DNA of 64,000 bases from Ostreococcus lucimarinus (lineage: Eukaryota), in NCBI GenBank assembly GCA_000092065.1, contig CP000587.1; one strand, written 5' to 3'. The notes below the pieces were generated by a model, which did not search any database, was not told where the DNA came from, and was given only the letters and a program-made list of their open reading frames with translations. Positions 2,885-35,500 of the stretch are shown in pieces (within the stretch, counting starts at the first letter, position 1; every line of letters starts with the position of its first letter). Made by a program: the position numbers and the translations under genes.

Positions 2885-2939
2885 GACTCGAAACACATTC
2901 ATTTTACATTCAATTCAATTCATTCTAGATACCCGTTTG

Positions 2940-3719: not shown

Positions 3720-3775
3720 CGCGCGCGGCGCACTGCGGCGGCGGCGGCGGCACTCACCGACGCGACGACGCGACG

Positions 3776-10757: not shown

Positions 10758-10806
10758 AACACACGCATTGTTTGCGCGCGCGCGATGTCTCGGGCGGCCT
10801 CGATAG

Positions 10807-12369: not shown

Positions 12370-12399
12370 AGCGTATTTCTAGGTGTATTATTGATTCAT

Positions 12400-15676: not shown

Positions 15677-16067
15677 CGTCGCCGCACGTCTCGCGCCGCA
15701 CGTCTCGCGCCTCGTCCCGCGTCGCGTCCTTCGGTCGCGCGACCGATCGCGCCTCGCGCGTCCTCGCGCGCGCGTCCCTCGCGCGCGCCCTCGCCGGTCG
15801 TCTCCGCGTCGCGCGGTCGCGCGCGCAGGGCCTCGCGACGCGTCGCGTCGCTCGGCGCGTCGACGCGCGTCGGCGTCGTCGCCGGGCGCGCTGTGCCGAC
15901 GATCGACCGCGCGGTGCCGATGGTACAAAGTGTGCTAGGCTCACTGTTTGCCCATACAAACTCCGACGGTCCGATATTGGCGCCGCGCGCGAGTGCGCGT
16001 TCGCGGCGTCGGCGCCGCCGCCGACGGCGCGACGGACGCGCGCGACGGCGCGACGACGCGACGCGCG

Positions 16068-17663: not shown

Positions 17664-17706
17664 GACTCCGGGTGTAAAAAAGAATTCATGAATATAAAAT
17701 GCTGCT

Positions 17707-20631
17707 CTAATCTGATCGAGTCGCGCGCGCGACTCGATATGCTGCTTGGTCGAATAATACCGAGCCCAATCGCAACGCCGCCGCCTGCGCACCAGGGGCG
17801 AGTTCCGGAGCAAGGTCGACGAGCTCTTGCACGAGCTCCATATCAATCTCCGGCGGAGTTAAGGCGTTGGCTTCTTCCTTCTTGTCCGTCCCTCCATCAC
17901 TGCCGCTGAAGAAGTTGCGAAGCTCGTCAACGACTTTGAGGGTTTCCAAATCTTCCTCGCTCACGTGCGTCGCGCGTTCGAGTGGCGCCAACGTGCCCTG
18001 CGCGCTGCTCAAGAGTTCAGCGGCGGGCGCGAAAGACTGCGCGAAAGACTCGGCTGCGGAGAGAGGAGCCGATAACGCCGACGACGCTGTCGTGGACGCG
18101 AGCGCCCCGGCGTAGCGACCGAGCTCTCGTAGCGCAATGTCTTGAATCGGCCCGCCCGTGGGATCAAACGCTAGTTTCAACGCTTCGCGGGTGCTGCTCG
18201 AAATCTTCTTGTGCGCGCCTCCAGCCTTTTCAGGCTCCGTCGAAGGCTTGGCGCGGCTCGTGATCGATGTGTAGCTTCCGAACGCGGTAGAGAGTTGCCG
18301 AACGCGATTAACACTCAGAACGGCGTGTTCGCCGCTTTCCTTGCCGTACAAGAGCTGTTCCAAAGCACGTCGAGTCTCGGGTGACTTGTCCGTCAACAAT
18401 CGACGAGCGACGTACGGATAGCACTCGTTCGCGATTGAATAGTTTTTGTCGGAAGACAGCCCGATGCCCTCGAGGACGGAGAACGCACGGAGAATGTAGC
18501 CGAAATAGGCTGGAATCTGAAAAATATTTCCGTACTTTTCCTGGACACCTTCCAAATCCTTCGTCAACTGCGCCACCTTGCTATCCGTGCCCGCGGCTTC
18601 CAAGAAGGCGTCGCGACGCGCCTTGGGATCTTTGACGCCCTTTAACTCTTTGCGAATCTCTTTAATGCGCTCTTCGTCCGGAAGACCGAGTTCGTCGCGG
18701 AAACCTTGCGCCCCGCCACCGCGAGCGAGGGCAGAGAATAACAAGCCAAGCGCTCGAGCGACACCTGAATCCTCCATCGCTTCTCGTTTACCAGACGGGA
18801 TGAAACCCATCGCGTCCAAATCACCCGGTACGGCTTCGAAATCCTTGCTCACCAAGTGCGCGATGAAGCGCAAAATAGCCGCCGATAAATCCTTGGATAC
18901 TGGCGTGACGAGACCCCAGTCAAGAATGCACAGCTTGCCGTCATTCGTACGCAGCAGGTTGCCCGGATGCGGATCGGCGTGCAGGTAACCGAGATCCAAG
19001 AGCATCGCCAGGTACGATGTGAGCGCGACAGCGCAGAGTTGCGCCGTATCGTCCGCCTTGCTGTCTTGCAGACGCACGCCCTCTATCCAACCCGTGGTGA
19101 GCACACGACGAGTCGAGGCCTGACGAAAGACGGGCGCCGCCGTGACGACACCTCCCAAATCGGAGCGCGACGCCATGGCTTTCGCAAAGTTCTCACCATT
19201 CGTCGCCTCAGCTTCATAGTCAAGCTCAGCGATGAATCGTCGCCCCCACTCGTCGACCAGACCTTCGAGGTCGGAGTTCAAGTTGTTCCACTTTCGCCAC
19301 GGCTCGGCAAAAGAACGAATGATGCCGACGTCGAGGCTGATGGCGACAAGCGCCCCGGGGCGTTGAACTTTCACCGCCACCTCTTCTAATTGACCCTCGT
19401 CGTTTCGCCAAGTCCCTCTGTACACCTGTCCCAAGCTCGCGCTTGCGATGGGCGTTGAGCCGAGCGACAGCCGGTCAGCGGTGGGTCCGAGCTCGCGATC
19501 CAAAATTCTTCGCGCCAAGTCGTCGTCAAAGGGCGGCACTCTATCTTGCAGCACGCGCAACTCTTCGATGTACTCGGCCGGTAGCAAATCGGCACGACTA
19601 CTCAAAACTTGACCGAGTTTGACGTACGTTGGTCCGAGTGAGACGAGCAGGTTACGCAGCTGCGTCGCGCGCTTGGTGTTGATTTCCTTGCGCTTCGCGT
19701 CGCTCGTGTTCTCGCCTCGCGTCTTCCGATCCAACCAAAGCTTAGCGCTGAAACCGCCGAGCAAGATGAATGATCGAATCCCACGCTTCAACAACGTGAT
19801 CGGTCTGGTCGAGAAATACTTGCGCGTCGCCGCTGGGTCGTACCGCCTCAACTCAGCCGGCTCCACGTCGCCCTCTTGGCTCGCGAGCGCCGCCCACTCG
19901 TCCATGCCGTTCCCTTTCTTCGGTCGCGACGCGACCATCGCCAACGCCGCGAGACCGGCGATCAATCCAGCGCCGGTGGTAAAATCCGCACCTCCTCCGT
20001 TCACCGCGATCGACCCCGCGCGCCTCGCCGCCTCGTTCGCGAGCTCGCTCGCCTCGTTCGGCAGCGACTCGAAGAACGCCGCGCCGTCCGTCGTAAACCT
20101 TTCCCGATCGATCGCCGGCAGTCCCTCGAACGCGTCCGTCAGCGCCTTCACCAGTGTCGACATCACATCGATCCCACCACCGTCGACGACCGAATCAAAC
20201 GCCGCCATCGCCGTCCGCGCCGCGCGTTCCAGCGCGTCCCACGTCGCCGCGCTCGCCGCCGCCTCCGCCGCGTCCGCGCTCGCCCCCGCCGCGCGCGCCG
20301 CCTCCATCGCGCGTCGTCCCGCGCCCTCCGCGCTCGCGAGATCGATCGTCGCCGTCGCTTCGAGCGCCGTCGCGCGCGCGCGATCGAGCGCGTCGTCCGC
20401 GACGCTCCCGCGCGCGACGCCGCGTCGACGTCGTCGCTCGGCGTCGAGATTCCGCCGCGAGCGTCGCTCGCGCCGCGCGCCGCGCGCGTCGGCGACGCGC
20501 GCGATCGACGCGCGAGGCGCGCGCGCGGCGCCCGTCGCCATCCCGCGCGTCGGCGTCGCGCGCGGCGTCGAGCGTCGTCGTGTGCGGCGCCGCGCGCGCC
20601 GGGCCGCACTTCGCCCCGCGCGACGCGCCAT
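17707..20631 (-). CDS. ABC1/ADCK (UbiB-type) atypical protein kinase with long N-terminal Ala/Arg-rich presequence; plastoglobule ABC1K-like
   Basis: ABC1 domain: LGPTYVKLGQVLSSRADLLPAEYIEELRVLQDRVPPF, ASLGQVYRG, VAVKVQRPG, LHADPHPGNLL, ILDWGL. ATG verified at 20629-20631. Confidence 0.85.
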   Translation of the reverse strand: MARRAGRSAARRARRRTRRRSTPRATPTRGMATGAARAPRASIARVADARGARRERRSRRNLDAERRRRRGVARGSVADDALDRARATALEATATIDLASAEGAGRRAMEAARAAGASADAAEAAASAATWDALERAARTAMAAFDSVVDGGGIDVMSTLVKALTDAFEGLPAIDRERFTTDGAAFFESLPNEASELANEAARRAGSIAVNGGGADFTTGAGLIAGLAALAMVASRPKKGNGMDEWAALASQEGDVEPAELRRYDPAATRKYFSTRPITLLKRGIRSFILLGGFSAKLWLDRKTRGENTSDAKRKEINTKRATQLRNLLVSLGPTYVKLGQVLSSRADLLPAEYIEELRVLQDRVPPFDDDLARRILDRELGPTADRLSLGSTPIASASLGQVYRGTWRNDEGQLEEVAVKVQRPGALVAISLDVGIIRSFAEPWRKWNNLNSDLEGLVDEWGRRFIAELDYEAEATNGENFAKAMASRSDLGGVVTAAPVFRQASTRRVLTTGWIEGVRLQDSKADDTAQLCAVALTSYLAMLLDLGYLHADPHPGNLLRTNDGKLCILDWGLVTPVSKDLSAAILRFIAHLVSKDFEAVPGDLDAMGFIPSGKREAMEDSGVARALGLLFSALARGGGAQGFRDELGLPDEERIKEIRKELKGVKDPKARRDAFLEAAGTDSKVAQLTKDLEGVQEKYGNIFQIPAYFGYILRAFSVLEGIGLSSDKNYSIANECYPYVARRLLTDKSPETRRALEQLLYGKESGEHAVLSVNRVRQLSTAFGSYTSITSRAKPSTEPEKAGGAHKKISSSTREALKLAFDPTGGPIQDIALRELGRYAGALASTTASSALSAPLSAAESFAQSFAPAAELLSSAQGTLAPLERATHVSEEDLETLKVVDELRNFFSGSDGGTDKKEEANALTPPEIDMELVQELVDLAPELAPGAQAAALRLGSVLFDQAAYRVARATRSD

Positions 20632-21934
20632 GTCGAGCGACGCGCGCGTCGCCGAGCTCGATCGACGCGGGTACTACGTCGCCGTCGACGTCCCGCGCGG
20701 GGCGACGTTCGCGCTGGACACGGCGGAGTGGACGTGCGACGAACGCTTCGCGGGCGTCAAGGCGCTGACGCGTGGATTGCACTTCGTCGCCGTGCGCGAC
20801 GCGAACGAGCGAGGCGCGGGCGAACGCGTGGGAGAGTTCATCGACGCCGCGCCGGGAAGCGTGGAGATCCGGAGGTGGGACGCCGCGGTGGAGACGCTGG
20901 GGGAGGGAGAGGGGATGAGCGCGGAGGACGCGGAGCGCGCGCGCGCGGCGACGCGGGAAGGACGAGCGTTCGATGGAGGGTTAGCGTGGTATCCGACCGA
21001 GGTCGAGACGCGATGGATGGGATTGAGCGGATGGATCACGCGGGACAGCTTGCGGAGGTGTGGGGTGGATTGCGGGACGCGCGTGGTGGCGGGCGACCCG
21101 GAGGCGGAGACGCGCGGCGACGAACGGGGAGGAGTGGTGCCGTATTTCGATAACATACAGCGCGCGCCGACGTTTACGGTGAATGCGGTGCGGAAAAGGC
21201 CGAGTGGAATGACGCCGGCGGAGGTGTCGGCGATAAATATCGATGCGAACGCGCGGCTGGCGCACGCGGTGGCGTGCTTCGGCGACGACGGCTGGCGCGG
21301 GTTGTTGGGAGAGTTTCAACTCGCCTTCGTTCTCTTGATGGGGCTGTCCTCCATGGCGGCGTTGGAGCAGTGGAAACATCTCGCGCACGTGGTGTGCTCG
21401 TGCGCGGAGACGGCGGTGTTCGACTATCCGGAGCTTTACCTCGGGTTTGTCGACGCGCTCGATGCGCAGCTCGCGCGCGCGGGCGAAGACTTTTTCGTGG
21501 ACGATTACACCGAGGACAACTTCTTGCGGCCGTGCATGGTAGCACTGATGCGCATCGACGTCGACGACACCCCGAAGCGAGAAGTCACGGACATGGATGT
21601 CGAATCGACGCTGGACGCGATTTCGAGCAAGCTCGCCGCGCTCGCTCGCGGCGTGCGCGAGAAATTCGACGTCGACCTCATCGAGGAAGCTCGCGAGGCG
21701 AAGCTCGCGGACTCGAGCGTCGTCGACGCCGAAGAAGACGCCCCGGTCGTCGTCGAGTTGAGTGAGGGTCATTACATGGCCATGAACGCGACCGACGTCG
21801 ACGTCGAGTCCGACGCCTTCAAAACGGACGCCGAATCCGGCGCCGAGCGCATGGGCTGGATGCGCGCGTACGCGCCGACCAGCGCCGACCACACGCCGAG
21901 GAACGGTTCGAAATTCGTCAACCAACGGGCGTAG
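20630..21934 (+). CDS. AAR2: AAR2-family protein (U5 snRNP assembly factor homolog)
   Basis: GYYVAVDVPRGATFALDTAEWTCDERFAGVKALTRGLHFVAV matches the AAR2 N-terminal consensus. Conserved C-terminal region FQLAFVLLMGLSSMAALEQWKHLAHVVCSCAETAV. ATG verified at 20630-20632, overlapping the ABC1K start codon on the other strand. Confidence 0.6.
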   Translation: MSSDARVAELDRRGYYVAVDVPRGATFALDTAEWTCDERFAGVKALTRGLHFVAVRDANERGAGERVGEFIDAAPGSVEIRRWDAAVETLGEGEGMSAEDAERARAATREGRAFDGGLAWYPTEVETRWMGLSGWITRDSLRRCGVDCGTRVVAGDPEAETRGDERGGVVPYFDNIQRAPTFTVNAVRKRPSGMTPAEVSAINIDANARLAHAVACFGDDGWRGLLGEFQLAFVLLMGLSSMAALEQWKHLAHVVCSCAETAVFDYPELYLGFVDALDAQLARAGEDFFVDDYTEDNFLRPCMVALMRIDVDDTPKREVTDMDVESTLDAISSKLAALARGVREKFDVDLIEEAREAKLADSSVVDAEEDAPVVVELSEGHYMAMNATDVDVESDAFKTDAESGAERMGWMRAYAPTSADHTPRNGSKFVNQRA

Positions 21935-22170
21935 AATCGAATCGGTCCCATGCCGCGGCATCCTCGGTCGTACGTCAGCGATTCCAACTTTTCGTGGAAT
22001 CCGCTCGCGTCGCGCAGGCACCCGGGCCAGATCTCGGCGTCGCTCGTCGCCTTCGAGCCTCGCCGCGACGTCGACATCGCGCGCGTCGCGTTCGTCGTCC
22101 CGCGGCTTGTGATCGTAATCTCACGAACGACCATCCGCGGCTTCGCCTCTCGCCTCTAACGGTAGGGGTC

Positions 22171-22566
22171 GGTGATGCTGAAATCTGCTACATGTTTTTC
22201 AGACTTTTTTTGCTACAAGTTTCTGAACTTTCAGCCAATTTTTGCTACAACTTGTAGCAACTTTCAGACAATTTGCACGCAGAAAGTCTGAAACTTGCTA
22301 CGTCTCCGGTGATGCTGAAATCTGCTACATGTTTTTCAGACTTTTTTTGCTACAAGTTTCTGAACTTTCAGCCAATTTTTGCTACAACTTGTAGCAACTT
22401 TCAGACAATTTGCACGCAGAAAGTCTGAAACTTGCTACGTCTCCGGTGATGCTGAAATCTGCTACATGTTTTTCAGACTTTTTTTGCTACAAGTTTCTGA
22501 ACTTTCAGCCAATTTTTGCTACAAGTTGTAGCAACTTTCAGACTTTGGTGTAGCAAGTTTCAGACT
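22171..22566. repeat. AT-rich 137-bp tandem repeat (about 2.9 copies) full of short palindromes, at the left boundary of the low-GC island
   Basis: Copies start at 22171, 22308 and 22445. The unit contains gctacaacttgtagc (a perfect 7-bp inverted repeat) and tttcagac...gtctgaaa. About 35% GC in a genome that is otherwise 65-70% GC. Confidence 0.9.
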
Positions 22567-22836
22567 GACCCCCTCTCGCCCGAAATCGACATTCGGCGTC
22601 CGCGTCACCAATTCAACGAACTCGCCGGCATTGATCGGGCGCGACGTCACGCGTGCGCGCGAACGAAGCGAACGAAGCGAACGACGCGACCGCTCGATCG
22701 AACGGCGCGACGACGCGAACGACGCGACCGCTCGATCGAACGGCGCGACGGCGCGACGCGCGCCGGCGCGACGAATCGAATTCGCGTCGCGCGATTCGTT
22801 GAATTGCGATTGCGCATCGACGGTCGACGGTGAACC

Positions 22837-24609
22837 ATGGCGAACGCGCTGATCGCGTTTACGCTCGCGAACGCGGCGTGTGAGCTGGTGACGCCGATAC
22901 GGTACGCGCGGACGATGACGCTGTGGAGCCGAGGACGCGGGGATTGCGGAGAGACGGCGAAGATTGGAGCGGTGTGCGGGTACCTGATTCAAATCGCGGC
23001 GACGTTTACGTGGTACGAACTCGCGGTGCTGGGAATCATCCCGGGCGGCGCGAGCGACGGTACGGTGGACTTTGAATTGCGATTGATACATCAAATGTTC
23101 ACGTACGTGACATTCGGAGCGGTGTTCGCTATTTGGCTGGACGACCTCGCCGTCGTCGGCGCGCCCGTTTCGTGGTGCTCGTCGCTGGCGAGATTGTACC
23201 AGTTCTTCTCGACGCGAATGATCGCGTGCATGATGATCATGGCGAGTCGAAAAACGCCAACGGCGTGGCATCCGTTCTGGACCGCGGCCGGTTACACGGC
23301 CAGCGCGGTAAAGGGCGCGGGAACGGACGTAATTCTTAAATATGCGTACTACTTTTGCCGAGCTGGGTTCAGCGTTGTGTCCATGGCGATAGCGCTGACG
23401 GGGGTATTTTACTGGAATCCAGTTCGCGCCTGGTTTATCCGCGTAGAAGATTCTCAATCGCGCGCGAGTCGCACTTCGAACCGCAAGGAGATGATGCGAA
23501 CCATCTTTTGGCACTGTGCGTTTGGTCTGATTTTCAGCGCAATTTGGATCACGGCGTCGAATTCAGGAATTCCTCGCATCGATGCCATCAAGGGGGCATC
23601 TAGATCTACCATGTCTACGCATTACTTCGAGCCTTGGATTCCGGGACACCAGATCATCCACGCGAAGAATCACGGGCAAACGATGATAGCGGTTGCATAC
23701 GCCACTTTTATCGCGTACTCATTGAACTATATGGACGACGGCGGTTTGTGGATCTCAAAAGTTCTCTCAATTCAACTGCCCGCCCAGATTTACAACTTTT
23801 TTGTTGTTATTTACATCATCGTCGCCCTTGGTGGTGGAACCATCTTTCATCCAACCTGGTACACGAATGGTTGGGCCCCAAGCTGGGCGACACATCGTAT
23901 GCTGGATTGGCTCTTCTTCGTTGGTACTGGTCATCTGACTATTTTCGGTGTTCCACTCATCACGTACGCGCTTCTCAAGCATCTCAGTATTCCCGAATTT
24001 AAGCCGTATGCGACTGCTTCCATGGGCTTCTTTACCAAGTGCATGCGTCATGGAATGGTATCAATTTTGTTTTCTGGGCTGTGGATGATGGCCGTCAGTA
24101 CGGGCGTGCCCATGCCAGATGCCAAACTCACAGCCATGTTTGGACTTCCCCCTCTACACAAACTCGACGTGCGAGAAACTATCAAGATGCATCACGTCGA
24201 TATCATCGTGAGCATAATTATTATGGCGAACGGTTACGCCGTGCTGGCTCTCGACCGCGTTGTTCAGCTGGATTACAAGCTGCATCAATTCATCACTGTC
24301 GTATGGAAGCACTCGATGACCAGTCGATGGGTGTACTTTTGGTGTGCGAAAATTCTCTTGCATAGCGGCGAGCGTTTTACTACACCGAACGTTATCGCCT
24401 CGCTCTTGCGCTTCCGATCGCAAGTTAAGTCTACCAGCAGTGACAACTGGTTTTTCGTTTTGATCGCCGTCATGGAACTGTACTCTTTCACCGCGATGAT
24501 GCTCTTATTTCTCTTCACACTCACCCGAATGGCTCGTGCCAGTGTGGCTTACTTGAGAAATAACGGCCAAGGTCAGGTAAACTGGACAACCGGCCTGAAG
24601 CAAGAATAG
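22837..24609 (+). CDS. Polytopic membrane protein (about 12 TM segments), unknown family; likely paralogous to the N-terminal membrane region of the 26138-31984 megaprotein
   Basis: ATG verified at 22837. GC falls from about 62% at the 5' end to about 47% at the 3' end. By-eye matches to the megaprotein: NFFVVIYIIVALGGGTIFHP vs MPFFTIMTAALMNILFHHAF; HRMLDWLFFVGTGHLTIFG vs FHMFGVSLASMAHLFILG; EPWIP vs HSWIP. Confidence 0.6.
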   Translation: MANALIAFTLANAACELVTPIRYARTMTLWSRGRGDCGETAKIGAVCGYLIQIAATFTWYELAVLGIIPGGASDGTVDFELRLIHQMFTYVTFGAVFAIWLDDLAVVGAPVSWCSSLARLYQFFSTRMIACMMIMASRKTPTAWHPFWTAAGYTASAVKGAGTDVILKYAYYFCRAGFSVVSMAIALTGVFYWNPVRAWFIRVEDSQSRASRTSNRKEMMRTIFWHCAFGLIFSAIWITASNSGIPRIDAIKGASRSTMSTHYFEPWIPGHQIIHAKNHGQTMIAVAYATFIAYSLNYMDDGGLWISKVLSIQLPAQIYNFFVVIYIIVALGGGTIFHPTWYTNGWAPSWATHRMLDWLFFVGTGHLTIFGVPLITYALLKHLSIPEFKPYATASMGFFTKCMRHGMVSILFSGLWMMAVSTGVPMPDAKLTAMFGLPPLHKLDVRETIKMHHVDIIVSIIIMANGYAVLALDRVVQLDYKLHQFITVVWKHSMTSRWVYFWCAKILLHSGERFTTPNVIASLLRFRSQVKSTSSDNWFFVLIAVMELYSFTAMMLLFLFTLTRMARASVAYLRNNGQGQVNWTTGLKQE

Positions 24610-24806
24610 TCCGTGAGCAATGGACTTAATTAAAAACTTTCTGCGACTTACTACTCTTTACATCAACTGAAAACGGTCAAGAAGTGTTCGCACACCGGTT
24701 GCTATACAAAAGCCGTTTGTGCACTTTTGCCATAGCATTCTGGAACCTTGTGCGACTTCGAAAAGGATGCTTGATACAATACATATGAATATGCTATGAC
24801 TATTAA

Positions 24807-25859
24807 TTACGCTAATTTCGATGCTCGTGAAGACGAATGCGGCGCGCCATCGAGCGATTCATTGTCATGTAGTAGAACGCTGATGTATTCAAGCATCGCT
24901 TGCCCCGCCGTGTCATTCAGAATTTCCTCAAAGGAGAGTGATCCGCGATTCGAGATATCGATGCGCTCGAAAAGCTCTTTTATGTCTCGTGCGTCGACGC
25001 CCCACGTGAACAATTGCTCACGGAGCTCGCTCCCATCTAACGTGCCATTACCATCCTTATCCAGCACATCAAAAGCTGTCCGTAACGGCGTCTTACCGAT
25101 TCGCAAACGTACCAACGAATTCACTCTACCACAGATAGCTGCAAAATTGCGTTCTTTTCCGCTTTCCTCGGATCCGCACGCGTTGGAATACGCGGCAATG
25201 ATGACTATGGCAATGAGGGCACCCACGGGACCGTACACTGCTGGTATGACTAAAAACAGTGCAAGAGTTGCCCCTGTCGTGTACCGGTGCTCCTTAATAC
25301 CCGGAACATTCGTGAACGCAAATATAAACATTCTGGAATACACGAACCCCTGCGCGAGAACGAGCTGGTCGATGAAATTTTCCAATACGGCGCCGCTCGA
25401 GTCTGACGAAAGCGCGCCGGCTCCAATCAGCACTCGAAACGCTTTTTCGATGTGCGCGGTGTTTATAATGTGCAATGCAGGAGTTATAATAGACGGTGTC
25501 CCAAACGATGCGTCGATTTGAAGCATCGCCGTGAGCGCGATCACCAACACGCACGCCGCGCTCGCGCGCATCGTACCCCTCGCGCCGCCGCCGACCAGCA
25601 ACGCTCGCGCGCCCAACGTCAGCTCCATCGTTCCGAAGGCCACGTGCACCAACAGGCGCCTCGCTCGTCGACGATTCAGTCTAAATTTAGGATGCATGCG
25701 CTTCTTGCCCGCTCGAGCGTAGCCCAAGACGAGGAAAATCTCGAGCACGTACCCGATGACAATCACGGCAATCTTTTGCGTTCGCTGCTCGCTCGCCTCG
25801 CGCACGGTCCCACCGAACGCGTACGCACCGAGCGGGAGATCATACGTCCATGCGAACAT
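24807..25859 (-). CDS. Multi-pass membrane protein with a C-terminal EF-hand calcium-binding motif
   Basis: Hydrophobic helices through the first roughly 230 aa; EF-hand loop DKDGNGTLDGSELREQL; ATG verified at 25857-25859. About 50% GC. Confidence 0.6.
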   Translation of the reverse strand: MFAWTYDLPLGAYAFGGTVREASEQRTQKIAVIVIGYVLEIFLVLGYARAGKKRMHPKFRLNRRRARRLLVHVAFGTMELTLGARALLVGGGARGTMRASAACVLVIALTAMLQIDASFGTPSIITPALHIINTAHIEKAFRVLIGAGALSSDSSGAVLENFIDQLVLAQGFVYSRMFIFAFTNVPGIKEHRYTTGATLALFLVIPAVYGPVGALIAIVIIAAYSNACGSEESGKERNFAAICGRVNSLVRLRIGKTPLRTAFDVLDKDGNGTLDGSELREQLFTWGVDARDIKELFERIDISNRGSLSFEEILNDTAGQAMLEYISVLLHDNESLDGAPHSSSRASKLA

Positions 25860-26137
25860 TTACGCGTGCGTATCGAACGCGCGTCGTCGGGTCGAGACGA
25901 ACGCGTCGCGGTGTTCGGTTGGCCGTTGAGCGGGTTTGGGAAGTGCTTGTTTGAACGTTGTGCTTTTGCTTAAATAGTAAAACTGGTAGCGCGACAAACG
26001 CGTTATCGCACGATAAACGCGCTATCGTTGGGAATGTATCCAAAACTACGAATAGGCCGCAGGCTCGCGGCGGGAAGTCTTGCTCGTGGTGAGTTGGTTC
26101 ACCCACCGATTTTTGGAATTTTGACGCAACAGTGGCT

Positions 26138-29100
26138 TTACACACCAATGTTGCTCGGCACGCGTTCTGGGTGCATGTAAGGATATGCCTTTACTCCAAG
26201 CTTTGCGTTGCGGTTTTCGATCTGGCGTCCCATGGCACGCAGCTCAGAACGGAGATCTTGGAGAGCGGCGATTTCAGCCGGCGTAATCATCATGTCAGTG
26301 ATGTAATGTCCGACAAAAACCTCTTCTTTTGAGAACTGTGAAAGCGTCCAGCCAGTCGCCATCGTCTGCGCCGCTTGACCGACGCTCGGCAGCGCGTCGA
26401 TAACATCTTTTTCCGTCACCGGAACCTTCTTCGTCGGCGCAGGCTTGCGCATGATGAGCGGACGATTTGGACAATAAGAGTAATAGTCCCACTGGCTGAA
26501 GTTGACTGCGGCGTGAGTAAAAGAGCACGTGTACATCACTGACGTGCAGATATCAACAAGTTGATCGATTGAATCGATACTACCCGGCACACCGTGCTGA
26601 CTTCTGTCCGTGCCTTGGTATCCATAGCCTTGCATCTCAAGAATCATGCTCTGTATGTATGGATCGGCGGCAACTTCCGCGTCAGACGTGTAGTGCAGCT
26701 TGAAGATGCTTTTAGCGAAACGACGAAGACAGGCCCATGCTCGCAACGAGTCGTCACGATGATGATAACCTCTCAAATCTCCCTCACTTAGCACGCCACG
26801 TTTTTTAAAGGAGGTCGGAACGTGCAAATCGTCAAGCTTAAATCTCTGGTACGCTTTGCTCATCAAGTCCATGTGACCTCCTTGGCCAACTGCTACGACG
26901 CGATCAGTAACTCCTCCCGGAGATATTAACAACGACCGCCCAAGGGTATTGATGGCAATCACGTAGATGAGATGAGGACGCAATACCCGGTACACAGGAT
27001 GGTTTCTTGGAAGAGTTCTTTCGACGCAGACGGACCACGGTTCCATGAGCAAGTGCGTGCCCAATAGGTGCGATATCATCTGATGTACGTTTCCGTCAGA
27101 GCACATTAAGTGCGCTTTTGCGAGGAGCCACTCGTACTCGCCATCTTTTGGAGTCCATACCGGCGCGCTAGCACCAGACTGAAAGTGCTGGATGCAGATT
27201 GGGCGAAGTGCCGTGCTCTTGTCCGCAAAGAAGAGAGCCATGGAGTTCTCGACGCAGTAGCCTTGACCGCGCTTGATATCCTCAAGGATTTCATAGTCAA
27301 CCATGAATATGTGCCCTGCTGCCAACTCGCTTTCGAGCGTTTTGCCTGGAGGTAAAACGCCTCTTACATGTTCTTCGGTGACGCGAAACTTGGCTGGAAT
27401 TTGAGACACTTTGCGCACTTGATTTGGATGTGTTCCATTCATAAATTGACGACCAAACTCCTCGTCCGAACGCCAGTCTCTGATGATTGCAACAGGGGGG
27501 AGAGAAGCGTAAAGGCGATAGTAGTCATCCAGCGATTTAATTTCTTCGTCCTTGATCATTTCGGCGACGCCTTTATTTTCGAATCCCACAAAAGTATCGA
27601 CAAAGAAGTCCTTGTATTTTGTTGAGCTGAATTGCTCCGTGATGGGGAGCTTTGAGTGGTCGTCATATGTGCTATGATTTGGCAAGTACGAACCATTCGA
27701 CCAATCGAATTCCTTCTTCATGAACGAAAGGTACTGTTCAGTCGCATCGGCGATCAGTTGGCGACAAGCCAAGCTTGTTGTCGGCGTAATGGAGCACGGA
27801 AGAACGAATCGGACACCTTGGCCAATGTATCGCCACACATTCAACGTGAAACTCGTTGGAATTTGCGAAGTGAACGTCACATCTATCCGACCGCAATTCC
27901 AAGAGCTTTTCGAGGTTTGAGAAATAATGGCGTAAGCTGGCTCTCCAATATCGTCGGCGTGCACGAAGTGCGTGCTGATTGCTCCAGTTGCGAAGGAGTC
28001 ACCGAGATCATGCAGGACGATTTTGGGCGTAGCGCCACGCGTTCCGACGAATTGTAGCACCACATCACCGTCTATTCCAGACCCAGCGATTGAATGCGTC
28101 GTAACTTTGATCGTATACTTTTTTGACGCTTCAGGAGCGTAAACGTCTTTTCGTCCGCGGGTGAAAACGCGGCGAATTTTATATGACGTCTCGTAAACCA
28201 CCGCACGCGTCCAGTTCAAGGAGTTATAGTCTTGCGAGTTGATTGGTCGAGTGAGAGGCATGCAAGCCGGAGTACGATTCATACCGAACGATAAATTCTC
28301 AACCGAGTGTTGCGGGAGTGCGGCGTGAAGTCTCACGACTCCAACGTCGAGAAATTCAGTCCCCCAAGCTTTGTTGGGGTTGAAAATTTCCGCGGTATCC
28401 GAAGAAGTGGCCTCATATAACTGGATTTGAAGTCGGTACCTCACGGCTTCGCCCGCCACCTTGGTGCAGAACTCGTTTCGCAGATAGTCAGGCAAACGTT
28501 TCTCGTTCGGTAGTCGACGATATTTCATCATATGTGTCGTTGCGATCAGGTTCTGGTCAGCCTCGTCAGGCAAGAACGGCTCTTGACCGACGTCCGTCCC
28601 AGGGCCAGCTCCGTATGGAACGAGTCTGAACTTGCAGTATCGCTTTTTGCCATCCAAAGCATGGAATTCGCGACAAGTCTGCGAGTAATAATGTAAATCG
28701 CAGTACGAGTCGGGTGCCCTTCGCACCCCGCCGATACCAGCCTTAATGCCTGTGGGATACTTCATTCCCCATGCCTTGTAAGCGGAGTCGTTAAACGTCG
28801 CCATTTGAAATACGAACGGAAGAAACGAATCCAAGTTGAAAAATCCAGCGAATTCACCAGTGTTCAGGTGCAGATCGAATGGACTTTCGTCGACGGCATT
28901 TGAGAACTTCAGCGCACAACCTCGAATCTCAAGAGATGCGTCGTCATACATTTCCGAGTCGGCGAGCTTCACGCCGACGGCGTTCGAGTGCCTCAAGATG
29001 ATTGGCATCGTCTTGCCCTTCGTAAAGAAAGCATTTTTGGGCACCTTACTGTTCTCGATGACGGTGAATTGCCCGATCGCACCAACACCGACTGGATGGG

Positions 29101-31984
29101 TCGGGCGCCTTTTCTGCATCAGAGTGCCAAACACGAACATGAAAGCAATCTTCAACTGCATCACCAGCAACCCAAACGCATTGGGAGGTGGCATTGGAAT
29201 GGGAAACTCGGAATTCGAGGCTGCGTCGAACATTTCATCTCCGAAAGCGGCTTTATAACACTTGACCCAGTGATTTTGCCACTGTGACACCACCGCGACC
29301 AATGGCCTTGGAGAGGTGGATGGCGACTTCGACAAAATACGACCGAAACTCGACTTTCGCATCGTACTCATCTCATCCGGAACCACAATGCCCCGCTTAA
29401 ATAGTGCAGCAATGAACCTTACCTTGACGGTACTGAGCATCACCACTCGGTTTTTAACCGAATGGATCAACTTTTGAGTGGCTTTGGCGAATTGGAACCA
29501 GACATAAGTCCAACCCATGGTGTGGAGGAACAGCGAAAGCGTCAAGGGTGTACTGGTGTAACCGCAAAGCCACGAGAACCGCGAAACAAACACCAGCATG
29601 TGCATGAAATACACTCCACGGACGACTCTCATCACAGGTTTCAAGAATCGACCAAACGACGAGACGCCGCTTGTAAGGACTGAATGTGTCAGCGCGAGAG
29701 TCAAGAGACAGAAGTATCCAACGTGAAAGGAATCCTCGATGATACTGTCAGCCGATTCAAACGCGGAGAGAGTCATGAGCCGTCGACGAAGGAGGTCAAC
29801 CATCGAGTTCGAAAGAGCGCCCGCGCCAATAATACGCACTAACCTGATGAGAATATGCCAGATGTGAGATAATGCACCCAGTGTGCACATCATCTTCGTC
29901 GTCTTCTGGATTGCATGAAAACGCGACCTCGCCTCCTTCGACGTTTCGTGCGTATTCACGAGAGCAATGTGCTGCAAGTACACCCGAAGCCAAGCCAGGC
30001 ACAGTAAGATGATTTGAACATCAGTCTCGACGCTTTCTAGGTATGCATTTTCGAAGCGCTTTGCGTCACAACTGCGCAACGGGCATCCTAAGAGTATGTG
30101 AACGAGGGTTCGTGAAACTTTATCACTCTTGCCCGTCAGCGCCTTGTAATAGAGTGAGATAATCACAAACCACAAAGTGATAGTGCTCTGCGCAAAAGTA
30201 TTCATGGAGAGTGCGACTCCTTTTGGAAAAGAAGGGTTCATGAGATTGTGGGCAGCGAAAGATAACAGTAGAGGACTGATTGCGGACATTCTTGGAACTG
30301 GCTTCGGTGCGATCAAGTACGTGTCTGAAAGCGGCACAGGATGCGGTATACCACTCGTTAGCAGAGCGATCGGAAGCATAGCGCAGAGGACAAGGACCCC
30401 ATTTATCCATGCACACTTCTCTACCTGCCGTTGCAAAGCGAAATGCTTCAGCACAAGCATGCGCCAGCGTCCACGCAAATTCGTGAAACCCGTTCGCTGG
30501 CCGCTCGAATCCGGATTTCTGGAAAGGTGAACGGCGCCTCGTACGCACGCGTAGATTGAGAGCATCATGATGAGCCAGATAGTGAAATCAACCCCCACCC
30601 AATCACTGGGAGCGTGATGTAACTTTCGCGTCCACGGATTGGACATAGCACGAGCCACCAGAAAATGATCGCAGAGAGTGTAGGAAACAGACATTGCCAT
30701 CACGCCGTAGATCAATCTGGCGCTTCTTAGCGTTCGTTGGTCAGAAAATGCGCTCTTTCGAATCACGGCGGTGCTTATACCCACGAACGCGTGCAACACG
30801 ATGGAGTATTGCATCATTGAAATGCGAGCCAACTCGGCGTCGCCGCGCAGCAGCGCGTGTTCCTTGCTGAACCGTAAGCGCAGGACGGGAAAAGAAAGAG
30901 TTGACAAGCGGCGTGCGATGGTGCGGAGGATTGGAAAGTTGACCTTCAAAAGTGGTACCTGAAGGCGACCCCACTCTGGCATCATCACACCGGTGGCGAT
31001 GCCCTGGTACCACAAATTTGTGTACAGGAGACTCCCCAGTATGAACAAATGCGCCATGGATGCCAGGGAGACACCAAACATGTGGAATCCTTTGCGAGTC
31101 GGCCCGACGAAAATGGGACCGTTAAACGCGTGGTGAAAGAGAATGTTCATCAGGGCGGCCGTCATGATTGTGAAGAAGGGCATGTTGATAGAGAACCTGA
31201 ACCAGTCCGGCAGTGATCCGTGCGTTATGATGATCAACGCGAGAAGGCTCTTCGACGCTATCATGACGAACAGTGCGCCGAATGAACCTTGCCGCAGTGC
31301 AGGAATCCACGAATGAGATAGAATGCCAGTGACGAAGAGACCGGCGGAACACATACCGATGGTGTTTGGATTGCGCATGTTCGCCAAAGCGGAGAAGTGT
31401 CGACCGAACTCGAGTACGAAGATCGCCCCGCCGATGTAACAGATGCTAAATAGCACAGCCAGACGTTCGTGCATGATAAATAGCGTCGACGCTGATCGAG
31501 GTTTGGGAATCTTGAAATACCTGACCCGTTTCTCCGGCGGCACGTCCACCACGCCCAAGCGGCTCACGCGAATCAAACAAAATTTACCCAACGCGCCCAG
31601 ACCGTCCACGGACACCATGAGCGCTCCGACCGCGCAGTTCGGCATCTTCATCATCAACCGTAATCCATAAAGCGTCACGAACGCCAGCTGCGTTTCAGTC
31701 GCGTAATGCGTGTACGCGTCGCTCCCCGTGCACACGTACGACCACCCAATCGCGTGCACGCACGAGAACACGTACACCCACAGCGCCAGGCACGTCCCAT
31801 CGAACGAATTGAACACCAAATCGTTCGCGATCGCCCCGACGACCGCCGGCCGCGTTCGATCGCGCGCCACCGCCGCGTACGTCACGTACGCCGTCGACAG
31901 CACGTAATTGATTCCCTGCAACGCGTGGAAACGCCCGACCGACCATCCGGGCCTTAGCGCGTCGCTCGCCGCGTCGCTCGACAT
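26138..31984 (-). CDS. 1948-aa single-ORF fusion of an N-terminal polytopic membrane region (about aa 1-910), a catalase-fold heme domain (about aa 930-1280, AOS/HPL-like), a PLAT domain and a lipoxygenase
   Basis: Catalase core by eye: RRPTHPVGVGAIGQFTV (cf. ERVVHAKGAGAFGYFEV, distal His), MPIILRHSNAVGV (cf. TPIAVRFSTVAGE), LEIRGCALKF (cf. RDPRGFAVKF), FFNLDSFLPFVF (cf. FFIRDALLFPSFIH), proximal-Tyr region RAPDSYCDLH. PLAT: GSGIDGDVVLQFVGTRGATPKIVLHDLG. LOX: HQMISHLLGTHLLMEPW (His ligands), HAAVNFSQWDYYSYCPNRP (His/Asn ligands), C-terminus ...ERVPSNIGV (terminal Val, not Ile). ATG verified at 31982-31984. About 48-50% GC except the 5' 300 nt. Confidence 0.85.
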   Translation of the reverse strand: MSSDAASDALRPGWSVGRFHALQGINYVLSTAYVTYAAVARDRTRPAVVGAIANDLVFNSFDGTCLALWVYVFSCVHAIGWSYVCTGSDAYTHYATETQLAFVTLYGLRLMMKMPNCAVGALMVSVDGLGALGKFCLIRVSRLGVVDVPPEKRVRYFKIPKPRSASTLFIMHERLAVLFSICYIGGAIFVLEFGRHFSALANMRNPNTIGMCSAGLFVTGILSHSWIPALRQGSFGALFVMIASKSLLALIIITHGSLPDWFRFSINMPFFTIMTAALMNILFHHAFNGPIFVGPTRKGFHMFGVSLASMAHLFILGSLLYTNLWYQGIATGVMMPEWGRLQVPLLKVNFPILRTIARRLSTLSFPVLRLRFSKEHALLRGDAELARISMMQYSIVLHAFVGISTAVIRKSAFSDQRTLRSARLIYGVMAMSVSYTLCDHFLVARAMSNPWTRKLHHAPSDWVGVDFTIWLIMMLSIYACVRGAVHLSRNPDSSGQRTGFTNLRGRWRMLVLKHFALQRQVEKCAWINGVLVLCAMLPIALLTSGIPHPVPLSDTYLIAPKPVPRMSAISPLLLSFAAHNLMNPSFPKGVALSMNTFAQSTITLWFVIISLYYKALTGKSDKVSRTLVHILLGCPLRSCDAKRFENAYLESVETDVQIILLCLAWLRVYLQHIALVNTHETSKEARSRFHAIQKTTKMMCTLGALSHIWHILIRLVRIIGAGALSNSMVDLLRRRLMTLSAFESADSIIEDSFHVGYFCLLTLALTHSVLTSGVSSFGRFLKPVMRVVRGVYFMHMLVFVSRFSWLCGYTSTPLTLSLFLHTMGWTYVWFQFAKATQKLIHSVKNRVVMLSTVKVRFIAALFKRGIVVPDEMSTMRKSSFGRILSKSPSTSPRPLVAVVSQWQNHWVKCYKAAFGDEMFDAASNSEFPIPMPPPNAFGLLVMQLKIAFMFVFGTLMQKRRPTHPVGVGAIGQFTVIENSKVPKNAFFTKGKTMPIILRHSNAVGVKLADSEMYDDASLEIRGCALKFSNAVDESPFDLHLNTGEFAGFFNLDSFLPFVFQMATFNDSAYKAWGMKYPTGIKAGIGGVRRAPDSYCDLHYYSQTCREFHALDGKKRYCKFRLVPYGAGPGTDVGQEPFLPDEADQNLIATTHMMKYRRLPNEKRLPDYLRNEFCTKVAGEAVRYRLQIQLYEATSSDTAEIFNPNKAWGTEFLDVGVVRLHAALPQHSVENLSFGMNRTPACMPLTRPINSQDYNSLNWTRAVVYETSYKIRRVFTRGRKDVYAPEASKKYTIKVTTHSIAGSGIDGDVVLQFVGTRGATPKIVLHDLGDSFATGAISTHFVHADDIGEPAYAIISQTSKSSWNCGRIDVTFTSQIPTSFTLNVWRYIGQGVRFVLPCSITPTTSLACRQLIADATEQYLSFMKKEFDWSNGSYLPNHSTYDDHSKLPITEQFSSTKYKDFFVDTFVGFENKGVAEMIKDEEIKSLDDYYRLYASLPPVAIIRDWRSDEEFGRQFMNGTHPNQVRKVSQIPAKFRVTEEHVRGVLPPGKTLESELAAGHIFMVDYEILEDIKRGQGYCVENSMALFFADKSTALRPICIQHFQSGASAPVWTPKDGEYEWLLAKAHLMCSDGNVHQMISHLLGTHLLMEPWSVCVERTLPRNHPVYRVLRPHLIYVIAINTLGRSLLISPGGVTDRVVAVGQGGHMDLMSKAYQRFKLDDLHVPTSFKKRGVLSEGDLRGYHHRDDSLRAWACLRRFAKSIFKLHYTSDAEVAADPYIQSMILEMQGYGYQGTDRSQHGVPGSIDSIDQLVDICTSVMYTCSFTHAAVNFSQWDYYSYCPNRPLIMRKPAPTKKVPVTEKDVIDALPSVGQAAQTMATGWTLSQFSKEEVFVGHYITDMMITPAEIAALQDLRSELRAMGRQIENRNAKLGVKAYPYMHPERVPSNIGV

Positions 31985-32532
31985 CGCGTCCCGCGCGTCC
32001 GCCTCTTTTCGCGACCGTCTCCGCGATCGCTCGCGTCGCGTCGCCGTGCGCGCGCGCGTCTGTGTCGTGATACCGCCGCGGAATCAAATTTAATTAATCG
32101 ATTCGATCGCTAACGGTCGCGCGCGATCTTCAGCGCGCGCCGTCGACGCGACGCGACGCGCGCCCGCGCGCGGGTCGCGGATTCGCGAAAAACAAAATCG
32201 CCGCGGGCCGGCGCGCGATCCTCGGCGCGCGCGCCGTCACGCGCGATGTATCATCTTAGTCATTCTTAGCGCTTGGTTTAGCTCACTGTATAGTAGCGCG
32301 TCTTTGTAGTCTCAGCTCGTCCGACGCTCGTCTCGCCGAAACGAAACAAACTGCCTCAAAACCCGATACAGGGATCGCCGCAAAGATGGCCTCGCCGTTC
32401 GCCGTCCCGCCGCTCCGGCGGCGCGCCGCCGTCCTCGCGGCGTGGGAAACCATCACAGACGTTATCGCGGACGAAGGTGCGCGCGCGCGCGCGCGGTGAC
32501 GAGAAAACGACGTCGACGAAGACGAGCACGCG

Positions 32533-35500
32533 ATGTGTCGGATGTGTCGAAAGCGACCTCGCGAGCGTGGACTGACGGACGCTGCGGCGCGACGAACAGG
32601 ACTGGCGTCGACGCATGACGTGCAAACGTTGATAAAGTCAATATTTGCTCACGTGCGAGACGCGCGATGGCGGGTGAAGGAGGTGCGGGAGGCGATGGAG
32701 ACGGCGACGAGCGCCGCGAGCGGGAGAGACGCGGGATTTCGAAGCGTCTTCGTCGCGGCGTGCGGGAAAGCGGTGGAAAAGGGAGGGTTTAGTGAACACG
32801 AGTGTTACGTCGCGAGTCGATTGATGTGCGCCGTGATGAGCGCGATGACGTTGGAGAGCGAGGATGGGTTGTTGGCGAAGTCGCTGGAGACGCTCGCGAG
32901 GCTGCGAGCGAAGGGCGCCAAGGCGTTCTCGGCTAAGGCGTTTAAACAGATGGTGCTCGCGCACGGGGGGGATGTGGTTTTGGATAGATACATCGAGCTT
33001 GTGCAAAGTAGTGGTGGGACGAATCCGGTTCTGTGCGCGTTGGCGCACGAAGCGTTCGCCGTGGCCAAAACGACTTCTCGGCGACCAGCCGAGATCCGCA
33101 AGGCGCTTTTGGAGGTGTTTTGTACCGTCGTGCTTGGCGCCGACGCGAAAGTCGCCAAAGTTGGAGTGTCGAGCGAGTCGTTTGCGTCCATTTTGACGAA
33201 TGCTACGAGCGAAGAACTCAACGAGACCTTGCTCCCAAAAGCCGTTCGACAGTTGCGTCGCAGTCCCGAAGCTGTCTTGCCCGCCGTTCTCGGCGCGTTG
33301 AAGACGTTGAGCGCGGACGTGAGCAACATGTGCGCGGAAATGGGGCCGGTAATACTGCCTCTGGCGAAGCACGCAAACGAAGATCGTCGCGCGATGGCTC
33401 TGGAGATCGTAAGCGCCCTCGTGAATGGTTCTGCCGATGCGAGCGTCGTCAAGGAGCACATTTTTGCGCCGTGCACGAGCGAGTTTTCTTCAGGACCTCG
33501 ACCGAAGGAGTGGACCGCTCGCACCGGTTTGTACGCTGTGATTGCGTCCTGTTCGCAGTTGAGCGACCGCAAAGCGAGAGAGTTGCTCAGCGCCGACGCC
33601 ATCGGTGTTCTCTCAGCGGAACTGACCGTGGAAAAGCAACTCGAAGCGAAAGCCGCAGCGCTCAGCGCTCTAACTGCATGGCTTCGTCATGCGAGTGAAT
33701 GCCCAGAATCGCTCGCTAGTCTGGTAAAGGAGGCTTCGAAGGACACGACGGAGCGCTGCTCGACATTTCAGTGCGTAGCACAGGCTTTGCGCGTAAACTC
33801 TGCGCTTCCGGCAGGGCTATCAGGCGTCGTCGCCAACTTGTCTCCGATTGCGGTGGCGGGCAGTGGTAAGCTAGCACTACGTGCCGAGGGCTTAAGCTCA
33901 CTATACATACTTCTGCGCGTTGCAGCAGAAGACCCATCTACTGCTGAAGCGCTGAAGACGAACAAGGTTTGGGATTCTGTCGCGGCGTACTTTGAGCCTG
34001 CGACCATGACACGCTTGGACGACGAGAGTACTGAAATTCTTGCCGCGACGGGTCAGTCCATCATGGCTTTCCACGCCTCACATGCGGCGAAGATGGGGTT
34101 GGTAGATTCGGTGATTCAAGCGATTGCTTTTTTGACTGTGCACGCTCACTCACGAACACGAGCGGCGGCGAGAGAGGCTGTGCGAGGCGCAATTTCTGTT
34201 GGACAACCATCCGTCAAAATGATCCAAGGGCTGCGACATTGGCTCGCTTGGGCCGAGGCTGGAAAGTGGGAGGGTATGATGGACGACACGTTCCCGTCGC
34301 AATACGCCGGTGCTTCACTGATAGCATATTGCGAGTTCAATGAAGACGAGCAAGCCCTGACACTTCCGAATGATTTGATCGGCGAAATGCTCTTACTTGC
34401 ACATCACCCGCTCGTCAAAGCGTCTGATGGCCGACGTGGAGGCGCGTGGTCCGCAATTTTATCGCTCGTGGGGGATAACATCGACGTCGAGGACGCTGCG
34501 ATCGTGTGTAGTACCATTATGGGTGACAAGGGGTTGCGCAGCGAGTCCAGCATGGAACGTTCGTCGGCGCGTAGAGCAATCGTGTCGTTTGCAAGACTGG
34601 GCACTGAGACTGGACGTGTTGTTCTGGACACTATCGTGCCCCGTGCGTTAGAGATGCTCGATACATCGATACACGACGCCCTGAGTGCGAAGGATGTACT
34701 CATCTACAACACAGCACCGGGCTCGCTCTCCACAGATCCCGCGAACAAGCCTGCGGTTTCGACATCGACGCAACAACCGAAGAAGGAATCGAATGTGGTC
34801 TCTTTACGACCGAGCCAGGCATCAGCTGGAGCAAAGAAGACAAGTTCAAAGCCTTCGACGAAAGCGATTGATCCACGAGAAGCAGCGCGACGCGCGCAGC
34901 TAGCCGAAGAAGACACTGTTCGATCGCGAGTCAAGGAAGTCGTCCGCAAGTTTGTTGATGGACTCGAGGTCTTGACTGCTACTTTAGAAGGTCTCGGGCA
35001 TAAAGCGCGTGCGTGTGTGTGCGATATTGCGTATTCGAACGTCTTTCCACTGTTAAAGTCGAAAATCATCCCACAGTCTACGGTTCTGAAAGCAGTAGAG
35101 GCACTCGTGTATTGCGCCGCGGCGAGAGGGGCAGCGATGATGCTTTCGTTTCCACGGGAACGACAAGCCGAAGCTTTAGCCATTCGGTTGGGGGCAATGA
35201 GCTTAAACGGGACGCCCGCACCCGTTGAGATCGGCTTGAACGGTAAACCTGTATCGGTGGACATGCATACGGTTGGATTCGAGAGTCGCATCTTGGGACA
35301 AGCAATTGAGCTTGCACAAGAAGCCTTGGAGGACAATGATCCAGATCCACTTCCGGTACCTATATTTGGCGTGATGTTCCCTGTCATCGCGCACGCTCTA
35401 CTTCTTCCTGAAGCTCCAAAGAGTTTGCGCGTTGATGCTCTCGGTTTACTTGCAGCACACGCCGGTGAAGATGAAGACGGTGTGCCAATCTTGCCGAGCG

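Follow-up and report, generated by a model that had tools for sequence, protein, structure and literature searches.

Does a GC-poor block of genes in a GC-rich region betray a recent arrival from elsewhere, a local peculiarity of mutation, or a property of the genes themselves? The question is raised by a 64,000-nucleotide stretch of Ostreococcus lucimarinus DNA (contig CP000587.1, assembly GCA_000092065.1), hereafter the window, in which three membrane-protein genes of low guanine-plus-cytosine (GC) content lie between the host genes AAR2 and GCN1. A preliminary description of the window read this island as a module gained relatively recently by horizontal transfer, or as a locally distinct mutational or expression regime, and proposed that two of its membrane regions are paralogous. 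The analysis presented here indicates that the island is very probably a dispensable gene cassette of about 10.4 kb, which carries a conserved oxylipin module and was inserted in one O. lucimarinus lineage. Its three open reading frames (ORFs) lie where they were first placed. They encode a 590-amino-acid (aa) polytopic membrane protein (22837-24609, + strand; XP_001418669 / A4S024), a 350-aa membrane protein with a C-terminal EF-hand pair (24807-25859, − strand; XP_001418900 / A4S025) and a 1948-aa protein, hereafter the megaprotein, that joins transmembrane, catalase-like, PLAT and lipoxygenase (LOX) regions (26138-31984, − strand). The first two are exact matches to proteins of O. lucimarinus CCE9901.

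A 10.4-kb insertion polymorphism between AAR2 and GCN1

Searching metagenome contigs with AAR2 recovers alleles of the same species that lack the island altogether. Four of these (L020, L022, L023 and L025), whose flanks are 99.5-99.75% identical to the window, join position 21866 directly to 32240, as read base by base across the junction. The inserted cassette, absent from these ancestral empty-site alleles, spans 21867-32238 (10,372 bp, boundaries ± about 12 bp). With a fifth empty contig, L028, flank identity within the species ranges from 99.5 to 99.9%. The two genes are likewise joined without a cassette in two sister lineages, L026 (93% DNA identity) and L027 (81-88%). L031, from a more distantly related species of Ostreococcus, has seven flanking genes in colinear order (DEAD-Metallophos-WD40-ABC1-AAR2-GCN1 and the gene after it), again with no cassette. 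This comparison with related genomes, which the preliminary description had proposed as a check, therefore identifies the empty site as the ancestral state, since near-identical alleles, both sister lineages and L031 all lack the cassette.

Contigs from several samples (L001-L006, L034 and L035) carry the cassette with the same junctions as the window. Between L001 and the window, none of 10,427 insert positions differs, against 29 of 8,977 positions in the left flank (Fisher p = 2e-10), and L035 has 11 differences over 6.5 kb. The insert is thus more recent than the haplotype diversity that flanks it, yet not brand new. Of the relatively recent acquisition first suggested, the recent insertion at this site, polymorphic within the species, stands, but there is no sign of a foreign donor. 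The whole block is gained or lost at once: the four empty contigs share the junction 21866|32240, and L028 has the variant junction 21822|32250. The segment missing from this single contig (21823-32249) comprises the cassette together with 44 bp on its left and 10 bp on its right, and the L028 flanks share single-nucleotide polymorphisms with the cassette-bearing L001. The L028 allele is probably a secondary deletion of the cassette.

In a single lineage of the O. lucimarinus population, insertion would have struck AAR2 within its final codons, a short way upstream of GCN1, through breakage and end-joining with no recognisable transposon. The cargo would have been three complete genes with their own upstream regions and the stump of a fourth gene cut at the left breakpoint. 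AAR2, a splicing factor and the left host gene (20630-21934, + strand), has had its last 7 codons swapped for 22 codons of cassette DNA. At 21863-21934 (+ strand) the ancestral C-terminus, ...WMR-DGADVSS-stop, reads ...WMR-AYAPTSADHTPRNGSKFVNQRA-stop in the cassette allele. The C-terminus of AAR2 in L028 is a third variant, ...F-NHLSHS-stop.

The fourth gene, here called gene X, survives as a 5' stump of about 89 codons (21868-22134, − strand), the open frame of which continues into antisense AAR2 as far as 21772. Residues 21-92 of the stump are 56% identical (E 8e-28) to residues 7-79 of a 333-aa ORF in L007, a locus from another Ostreococcus lineage, and the homology ends at the left insertion junction. 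Because it stops there, the segment appears to have been cut from its donor locus by a break inside X. In L007, gene X (8669-9670, + strand) is a single-transmembrane ORF whose GC pattern is of the coding type and for which Pfam has no match; it lies between the LOX gene and the 590-aa gene, a position that it occupies only in this one of the related loci. Inward of the stump, an AT-rich tandem repeat with a 137-bp unit (22170-22580, 2.7-3 copies) contains a perfect 19-bp palindrome, TTGCTACAACTTGTAGCAA. It is present in 3 copies in the window and L001 and in 2 copies in L002, L005, L006 and L034, is confined to cassette-bearing O. lucimarinus loci, and occurs at no other site in the window or in related loci. 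The repeat may have a regulatory role or be left over from the donor locus.

Marks of known mobile elements were sought at and within the insert. No terminal inverted or direct repeats link its ends, no tRNA lies at the insertion site, and no clean target-site duplication was found, the junctions carrying only GC-rich microhomology and filler. No mobility gene is present among the ORFs with a homologue or domain match, which are the three genes and the X stump only, other short ORFs of the left spacer not having been searched. The insert is thus not a recognisable transposon. Two scans of viral contigs returned no homologue of the cassette, and a virus as vector is rejected as well. Scanned with PADLOC and NCBIfam, the cassette proteins yielded only generic EF-hand matches.

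Conserved linkage of three genes at different sites in Mamiellales

The 590-aa, EF-hand and LOX genes are adjacent in every readable locus, in five Mamiellales lineages and among five different sets of neighbours. In O. lucimarinus the neighbours are AAR2 and GCN1. In three further Ostreococcus lineages they are LysM and 2OG oxygenase (L007), Beta-helix and 5'-nucleotidase (L010, from a lineage close to O. tauri) and SET (L013), and in Bathycoccus they are TypA and PGP-phosphatase (L017). The suggestion that the locus is a module is thus borne out, as the three genes are linked in five lineages and are gained or lost here as one 10.4-kb piece.

Two of these sites can be compared with reference genomes that lack the cassette. 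The L010 flank is 97% identical to chromosome 12 of O. tauri RCC4221 (L036); homology ends at the cassette edge, and the reference locus has no cassette gene (L010 1-9722 against L036 13443). The L017 cassette, of about 10.2 kb (7477-17670), lies in a Bathycoccus species whose coding DNA is 75-87% identical to that of B. prasinos, and in three B. prasinos assemblies (L037-L039) TypA and PGP-phosphatase are adjacent and 322 bp apart (9678-10001). Absence is shown directly at these examined O. tauri and B. prasinos sites and is inferred, for the rest of those genomes, from the silence of protein databases.

The cassette proteins of the other lineages are 56-70% identical to those of O. lucimarinus, and their tree, (((L010,L013),L007),O. 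lucimarinus),Bathycoccus, follows the hosts. Gene order is 590/EF/LOX in O. lucimarinus and Bathycoccus and LOX/[X]/590/EF in L007, L010 and L013. The tree points to 590/EF/LOX as the ancestral order, with a single rearrangement in the clade of L007, L010 and L013. A circular-intermediate model for the two gene orders was dropped, since the tree needs one rearrangement only.

The AOS-LOX-type megaprotein and its putative membrane partners

The largest gene of the cassette is longer than its public annotation. The LOX gene model XP_001418901 / A4S026 has 1031 aa, and the uninterrupted ORF adds 917 N-terminal residues. Most of the addition is a polytopic domain of 910 aa (29255-31984, − strand), absent from the 1031-aa model and 45-55% identical in four other lineages. 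Because the ORF is unbroken and the domain is conserved in those lineages, the extra N-terminus is real coding sequence, and the reference model is truncated. Downstream of it, all on the − strand, follow a catalase-related haem domain (aa ~919-1272; 28169-29230; Pfam Catalase and alignment to the coral structure 3DY5), a PLAT/LH2 domain (aa 1290-1382; 27839-28117; Pfam and the same alignment) and a LOX catalytic domain (aa ~1400-1948 and the stop codon; 26138-27787; Pfam and the HxxxxH and H...N motifs). Hydropathy marks seven hydrophobic segments, six of them within the first 676 aa; the seventh, at aa 937-955, falls in the catalase-like region. Across genera the enzyme domains share 81-84% identity. 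For the N-terminal 910-aa domain, neither Pfam nor PDB has a relative. A homologue search with these residues was also empty, yet it missed the known orthologues as well (hydrophobic words; the 90% cluster representative is the 1031-aa model).

The last 1038 aa of the megaprotein match, from end to end, the fusion of allene oxide synthase (AOS) and LOX from the coral Plexaura homomalla (3DY5; domains 1U5U and 2FNQ/3FG1), with an E value of 7e-161 and query residues 14-1035 matching chain residues 25-1063. The next best matches in the structural database are animal lipoxygenases. Both LOX motifs are kept, HQMISH and HAAVNFSQ corresponding to coral HQLNTH and HAAVNFSQ. We take HxxxxH, H...N and the C-terminal carboxylate to be the iron ligands of lipoxygenases. 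The C-terminal residue of most lipoxygenases is Ile; the megaprotein ends in ...SNIGV, so that its last residue is Val. The haem site is retained as well, with RRPTHPVG, LHLNTGE and TRAVVY facing coral RRATHTVG, IVMNTGE and LRVAVY, and the conserved residues of the coral AOS (cAOS) include distal Thr66-His67, Asn137 and the proximal Arg...Tyr motif, with roles in the catalase-related domain that are in part described in PMC5617202. Position 150 in coral numbering (megaprotein aa ~1060, window 28700-28800, − strand) is Phe, the residue of the coral hydroperoxide-lyase (HPL) variant, where cAOS has Leu150. A Phe here has been linked to HPL rather than AOS chemistry (PMC5617202), and it is best read as a lead towards HPL-type chemistry, not as a test of it.

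From this architecture a sequence of steps may be proposed. The LOX domain would convert a polyunsaturated fatty acid to its hydroperoxide, and the fused catalase-related haem domain would convert the hydroperoxide to an allene oxide or to cleavage products. The PLAT domain and the polytopic N-terminus would keep the enzyme at the membrane, and the EF-hand membrane protein would place the module under Ca2+ control. What the sequences show directly is the insertion polymorphism, the conserved gene linkage, the order of domains and the catalytic motifs; the chemistry of the enzyme, its control by Ca2+ and the parts played by the two other proteins are inferred. The likeness to coral AOS-LOX extends over the full length of the colinear catalase-related, PLAT and LOX domains and takes in the haem-site residues (distal Thr-His, Asn and proximal Arg/Tyr) as well as the iron-ligand motifs of LOX. 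Unlike the coral enzyme, the Ostreococcus protein has the extra 910-aa polytopic domain, a C-terminal Val and Phe in place of Leu at position 150; its gene is clustered with two membrane-protein genes. The literature searched holds no published description of an Ostreococcus AOS-LOX fusion megaprotein or of this cluster. A preprint on O. mediterraneus reports oxidised galactolipids, including one with a chain-shortened 13-carbon acyl group, which its authors ascribe to LOX and HPL activity (bioRxiv 10.64898/2026.02.10.705097). The cassette is a candidate source of these unexplained oxidised lipids, which were met in work on Ostreococcus virus resistance.

Among 5.8 billion proteins, the 590-aa protein has only five close orthologue clusters. 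Its family numbers 41 members in an exhaustive profile search of 1.84 billion representatives, the longest of 907 and 1238 aa, and a repeat search with a 25-member family profile gave just the initial six proteins. Pfam has no match and PDB no relative, and an AlphaFold2 model built from six sequences reaches a pLDDT of 39, too poor for a fold search. A hydropathy scan finds seven transmembrane-like segments in the 590-aa protein and three in the 350-aa protein. The family is built of a repeated module, W-M-x-x-S-[ST]-G-[VI]-P ... H-x-x-D ... L-G-G-G-T-P-F-H-P-S-W, with two copies in the window protein and more in relatives of 900-1200 aa, and its invariant residues include two histidines. P0095 (907 aa), P0101 (1238 aa) and P0099 (503 aa) are modular relatives in which the unit ends in LGGG[ST]PFH.SW, and relatives of the protein bear three or four copies of the unit so terminated.

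The sole distant full-length homologue of the 590-aa protein, P0006 (31% identity), comes from a Tara metagenome. In its locus, L016, the homologue (400-2181, + strand) lies tail to tail with a gene for a patatin-like phospholipase bearing EF-hands (2462-4432, − strand). Because it adjoins an EF-hand patatin gene, the 590-aa family is tied independently to Ca2+-regulated lipid metabolism. The 590-aa protein may thus handle a lipid substrate or product. The 350-aa protein, in which Pfam places the EF-hand pair at aa 258-314 (encoded at about 24918-25088), is a putative Ca2+ sensor or regulator.

The 590-aa protein had also been suggested to be a paralogue of the megaprotein N-terminal membrane domain, from short segments aligned by eye. 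This is very doubtful. Both proteins carry the motif [ST][SN]G[IVL]P.P after a hydrophobic helix, but this is the sole recurring likeness, and it is also what hhalign returns as its best, non-significant, alignment. The best BLASTP match between the 590-aa protein and the megaprotein covers 20 aa with E 0.015 for the single comparison, hhalign assigns a probability of 0.4% with orthologue profiles and 0.7% with the 25-member family profile, and hmmsearch between family and domain yields about 0 bits whichever is the query. Nor do P0095 and P0101, the longer members of the family, match the N-terminal domain, and the exhaustive profile search, with its 41 family members, contains no megaprotein.

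Base composition, origin and significance of the cassette

The low-GC island itself is real. In 500-bp windows GC is 0.45-0.60 across 23250-31750 and 0.60-0.80 over most of the window, and the segment 21823-32249 averages 0.528 against 0.622 for the remainder. Outside the island and GCN1, every 10.4-kb window has a GC of at least 0.605, and the flanks of the insert lie at 0.60-0.66. GCN1, the right host gene outside the cassette (32533-40362, + strand), was rightly described as only about 55% GC (0.555; GC at third codon positions, GC3, 0.57). This low GC is intrinsic, because the gene is equally GC-poor (0.53-0.58) in alleles and species without the cassette. The near-saturated GC3 ascribed to the flanking genes was overstated, their values spanning 0.62-0.86 with a mean of 0.77.

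The background for these comparisons is about 30 genes from the window, and their GC3 depends on position within the gene. In the 29 other window genes it falls from 0.83 in codons 1-100 to about 0.68 at codons 400-600 (Spearman rho −0.55, 127 bins). In 21 of 23 genes GC3 is higher over the first 100 codons than over the last 100 (Wilcoxon p = 5e-4), and in the long ORF of the core gene GCN1 a plateau is reached at 0.55. GC within the 590-aa gene drops from 0.62 to 0.47, as had been noted. Since 5'-to-3' GC3 decay is general in the window, this gradient, offered earlier as evidence of transfer, is the normal genome pattern and not post-transfer amelioration. For the megaprotein, the GC3 expected from the positional model is 0.608 and the observed value 0.604. 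At first and second codon positions the cassette genes are 0.06-0.15 below other genes, as expected from their hydrophobic amino-acid composition. A residual GC3 deficit relative to position-matched genes is confined to the 590-aa gene (−0.10) and the EF-hand gene (−0.17), at 1-2 standard deviations; low expression, or a donor region of low GC, may be the cause. Mostly, the GC of the island follows from genome-wide GC3 decay, a very long ORF and hydrophobic proteins. Spacers in the window are AT-rich between convergent 3' ends (0.24-0.43 GC) and GC-rich at 5' ends (up to 0.9).

Composition also travels with the genes. Ostreococcus orthologues have a GC of 0.50-0.52 for LOX and 0.53-0.55 for the 590-aa gene, and the Bathycoccus cassette orthologues match their 48% GC background. 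Low GC belongs to the genes and not to the chromosomal site. A locally distinct mutational regime is not supported, given this behaviour in Ostreococcus, the ordinary flanks and the GC-poor GCN1 of cassette-free alleles.

Where the cassette came from is less clear than that it was inserted. One proposal is that it is a translocated fragment of a Mamiellales low-GC outlier region, either the part of chromosome 2 that is a candidate mating-type region or the small outlier chromosome, and has retained that composition. The low-GC region of chromosome 2 is documented to have low GC3, about 20% lower, and gene translocations with autosomes (Benites et al., PMC8557840). The single LOX gene of O. mediterraneus, Ostme02g00890, lies on chromosome 2 (bioRxiv 10.64898/2026.02.10.705097), GC-poor genes (GC3 0.62-0.63) also border the cassette in L007 and L013, and the same origin has been proposed for Bathycoccus cassettes (PMC5128809). 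Against this, the L010 flanks are GC-rich (GC3 0.75-0.78) around an equally GC-poor cassette, and the GC3 of the megaprotein requires no special origin. The cassette may derive from such a region, and the proposal is compatible with a dispensable cassette as its donor hypothesis; we consider it possible, if rather doubtful. The locus in its present place is not itself part of an outlier region, having flanks of 0.60-0.66 GC that are colinear with another species. It resembles those regions in a GC3 under the background, and they are linked to translocation and variable gene content (PMC8557840, PMC5128809). It differs from them as a 10-kb insert in a normal, syntenic region of 62% GC on a 783-kb chromosome, rather than a region of hundreds of kb.

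A second reading would need no special event: the island would be ordinary sequence, made GC-poor by its long ORFs, by the composition of membrane proteins and by the genome-wide GC3 decay. The megaprotein does have the GC3 expected for its position, core GCN1 is lower still, and other window genes have values of 0.62-0.66. Such a reading explains much of the composition but leaves the structure unexplained: a segment missing from near-identical haplotypes and relatives, with a truncated gene at its edge. Nor does it explain the deficit of 0.10-0.17 in the two shorter genes. It is unlikely, and as a full account of the locus the empty-site alleles contradict it.

Recent transfer from outside Mamiellales, from a bacterium, a virus or another eukaryote, with low GC as the donor signature, has still less in its favour. 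The segment is compositionally distinct and is an insertion, and among solved structures the enzyme is closest to lipoxygenases of cnidarians and other animals rather than to those of plants. However, orthologous cassettes in four other Ostreococcus and Bathycoccus lineages, with a host-like tree and 56-70% identity, mark the genes as long resident, the genes show the host-type 5'-to-3' GC3 gradient, and neither scan of viral contigs found a homologue. Because related Ostreococcus carry the same genes at the same compositional level, an observation that the preliminary description had itself named as speaking against its proposal, a recent foreign origin is disfavoured, and we regard it as highly improbable. 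The ancestor of Mamiellales may have acquired the AOS-LOX fusion by an ancient transfer. Equally improbable is loss in place of gain, with the cassette ancestral at the site and the empty alleles as deletions: L028 does look like a deletion of the cassette with 44 bp on one side and 10 bp on the other, but the end of AAR2 and the region upstream of GCN1 are shared and colinear among the common empty allele, both sister lineages and the distant species. In the cassette allele AAR2 ends in 22 foreign codons, and gene X is cut short at the junction; repeated deletion to identical base pairs is unlikely.

The closest known systems are the dispensable gene cassettes of Bathycoccus, GC-poor blocks of 2-4 genes with fixed borders for which an outlier-chromosome origin has been proposed (Vannier et al. 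2016, PMC5128809). The O. lucimarinus locus has every defining feature of such a cassette (PMC5128809). In B. prasinos, too, blocks of 2-4 genes lie on standard chromosomes in part of the population, with constant borders, a GC below that of their surroundings, and neighbours that are syntenic in relatives without the block. The present cassette differs in its host, in its defined oxylipin content, in the truncated gene at one breakpoint and in its probable re-deletion, and its three genes reappear together, as one unit, at differing sites in several species of two genera. Bathycoccus cassette genes are mostly short and without domains, whereas the Ostreococcus cassette holds a 1948-aa enzyme. 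A second comparison is with the metabolic gene clusters of fungi and plants, in which non-homologous genes of one pathway are physically linked and are gained or lost together. Linkage and joint gain or loss of non-homologous genes are common to both. The Ostreococcus cluster is much smaller, lies in a picoeukaryote with a 13-Mb genome, and encodes two uncharacterised membrane proteins among its three products.

Several points weigh against a dispensable cassette carrying an oxylipin module, or narrow what may be said of it. The donor locus has not been found, so that movement within the genome and introgression from another strain are indistinguishable. The junctions lie in GC-rich simple sequence in which an imperfect duplication of 6-9 bp (GCGCCG...), and with it a target-site duplication, may be present. 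The secondary-deletion allele rests on one contig, L028, the compositional background is that of a single 64-kb window and not of the whole genome, and the roles suggested for the partner proteins rest on linkage and domain content alone.

The reference LOX gene model is corrected by 917 N-terminal residues, and a functional context, lipid oxidation and Ca2+, is given to the 590-aa family and to the megaprotein N-terminal domain. GC3 decay can imitate compositional islands wherever long genes occur; as low GC here largely follows gene length and position, structural confirmation is needed before transfer is claimed.

Mamiellales rank among the most abundant eukaryotic phototrophs of the sea, with small genomes that tend to be regarded as highly syntenic. 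The locus described here is a defined functional gene cluster acting as accessory genome, both within a species and across sites in Ostreococcus and Bathycoccus, and the cassette is a concrete marker of population structure that can be tested by polymerase chain reaction. A bolder and tentative proposal, which we think somewhat unlikely as a whole, is that the cassette is an accessory island, complete in itself, that has relocated repeatedly. Triggered by Ca2+, it would serve as a membrane-embedded unit of oxylipin signalling or defence, with two new membrane-protein families as obligate partners of an AOS/HPL-LOX enzyme. It would move as a block between sites, and possibly strains, without a transposon signature, and would be kept polymorphic by fluctuating selection, for example from viruses or grazers. 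If so, it would be a eukaryotic counterpart of bacterial defence or metabolic islands.

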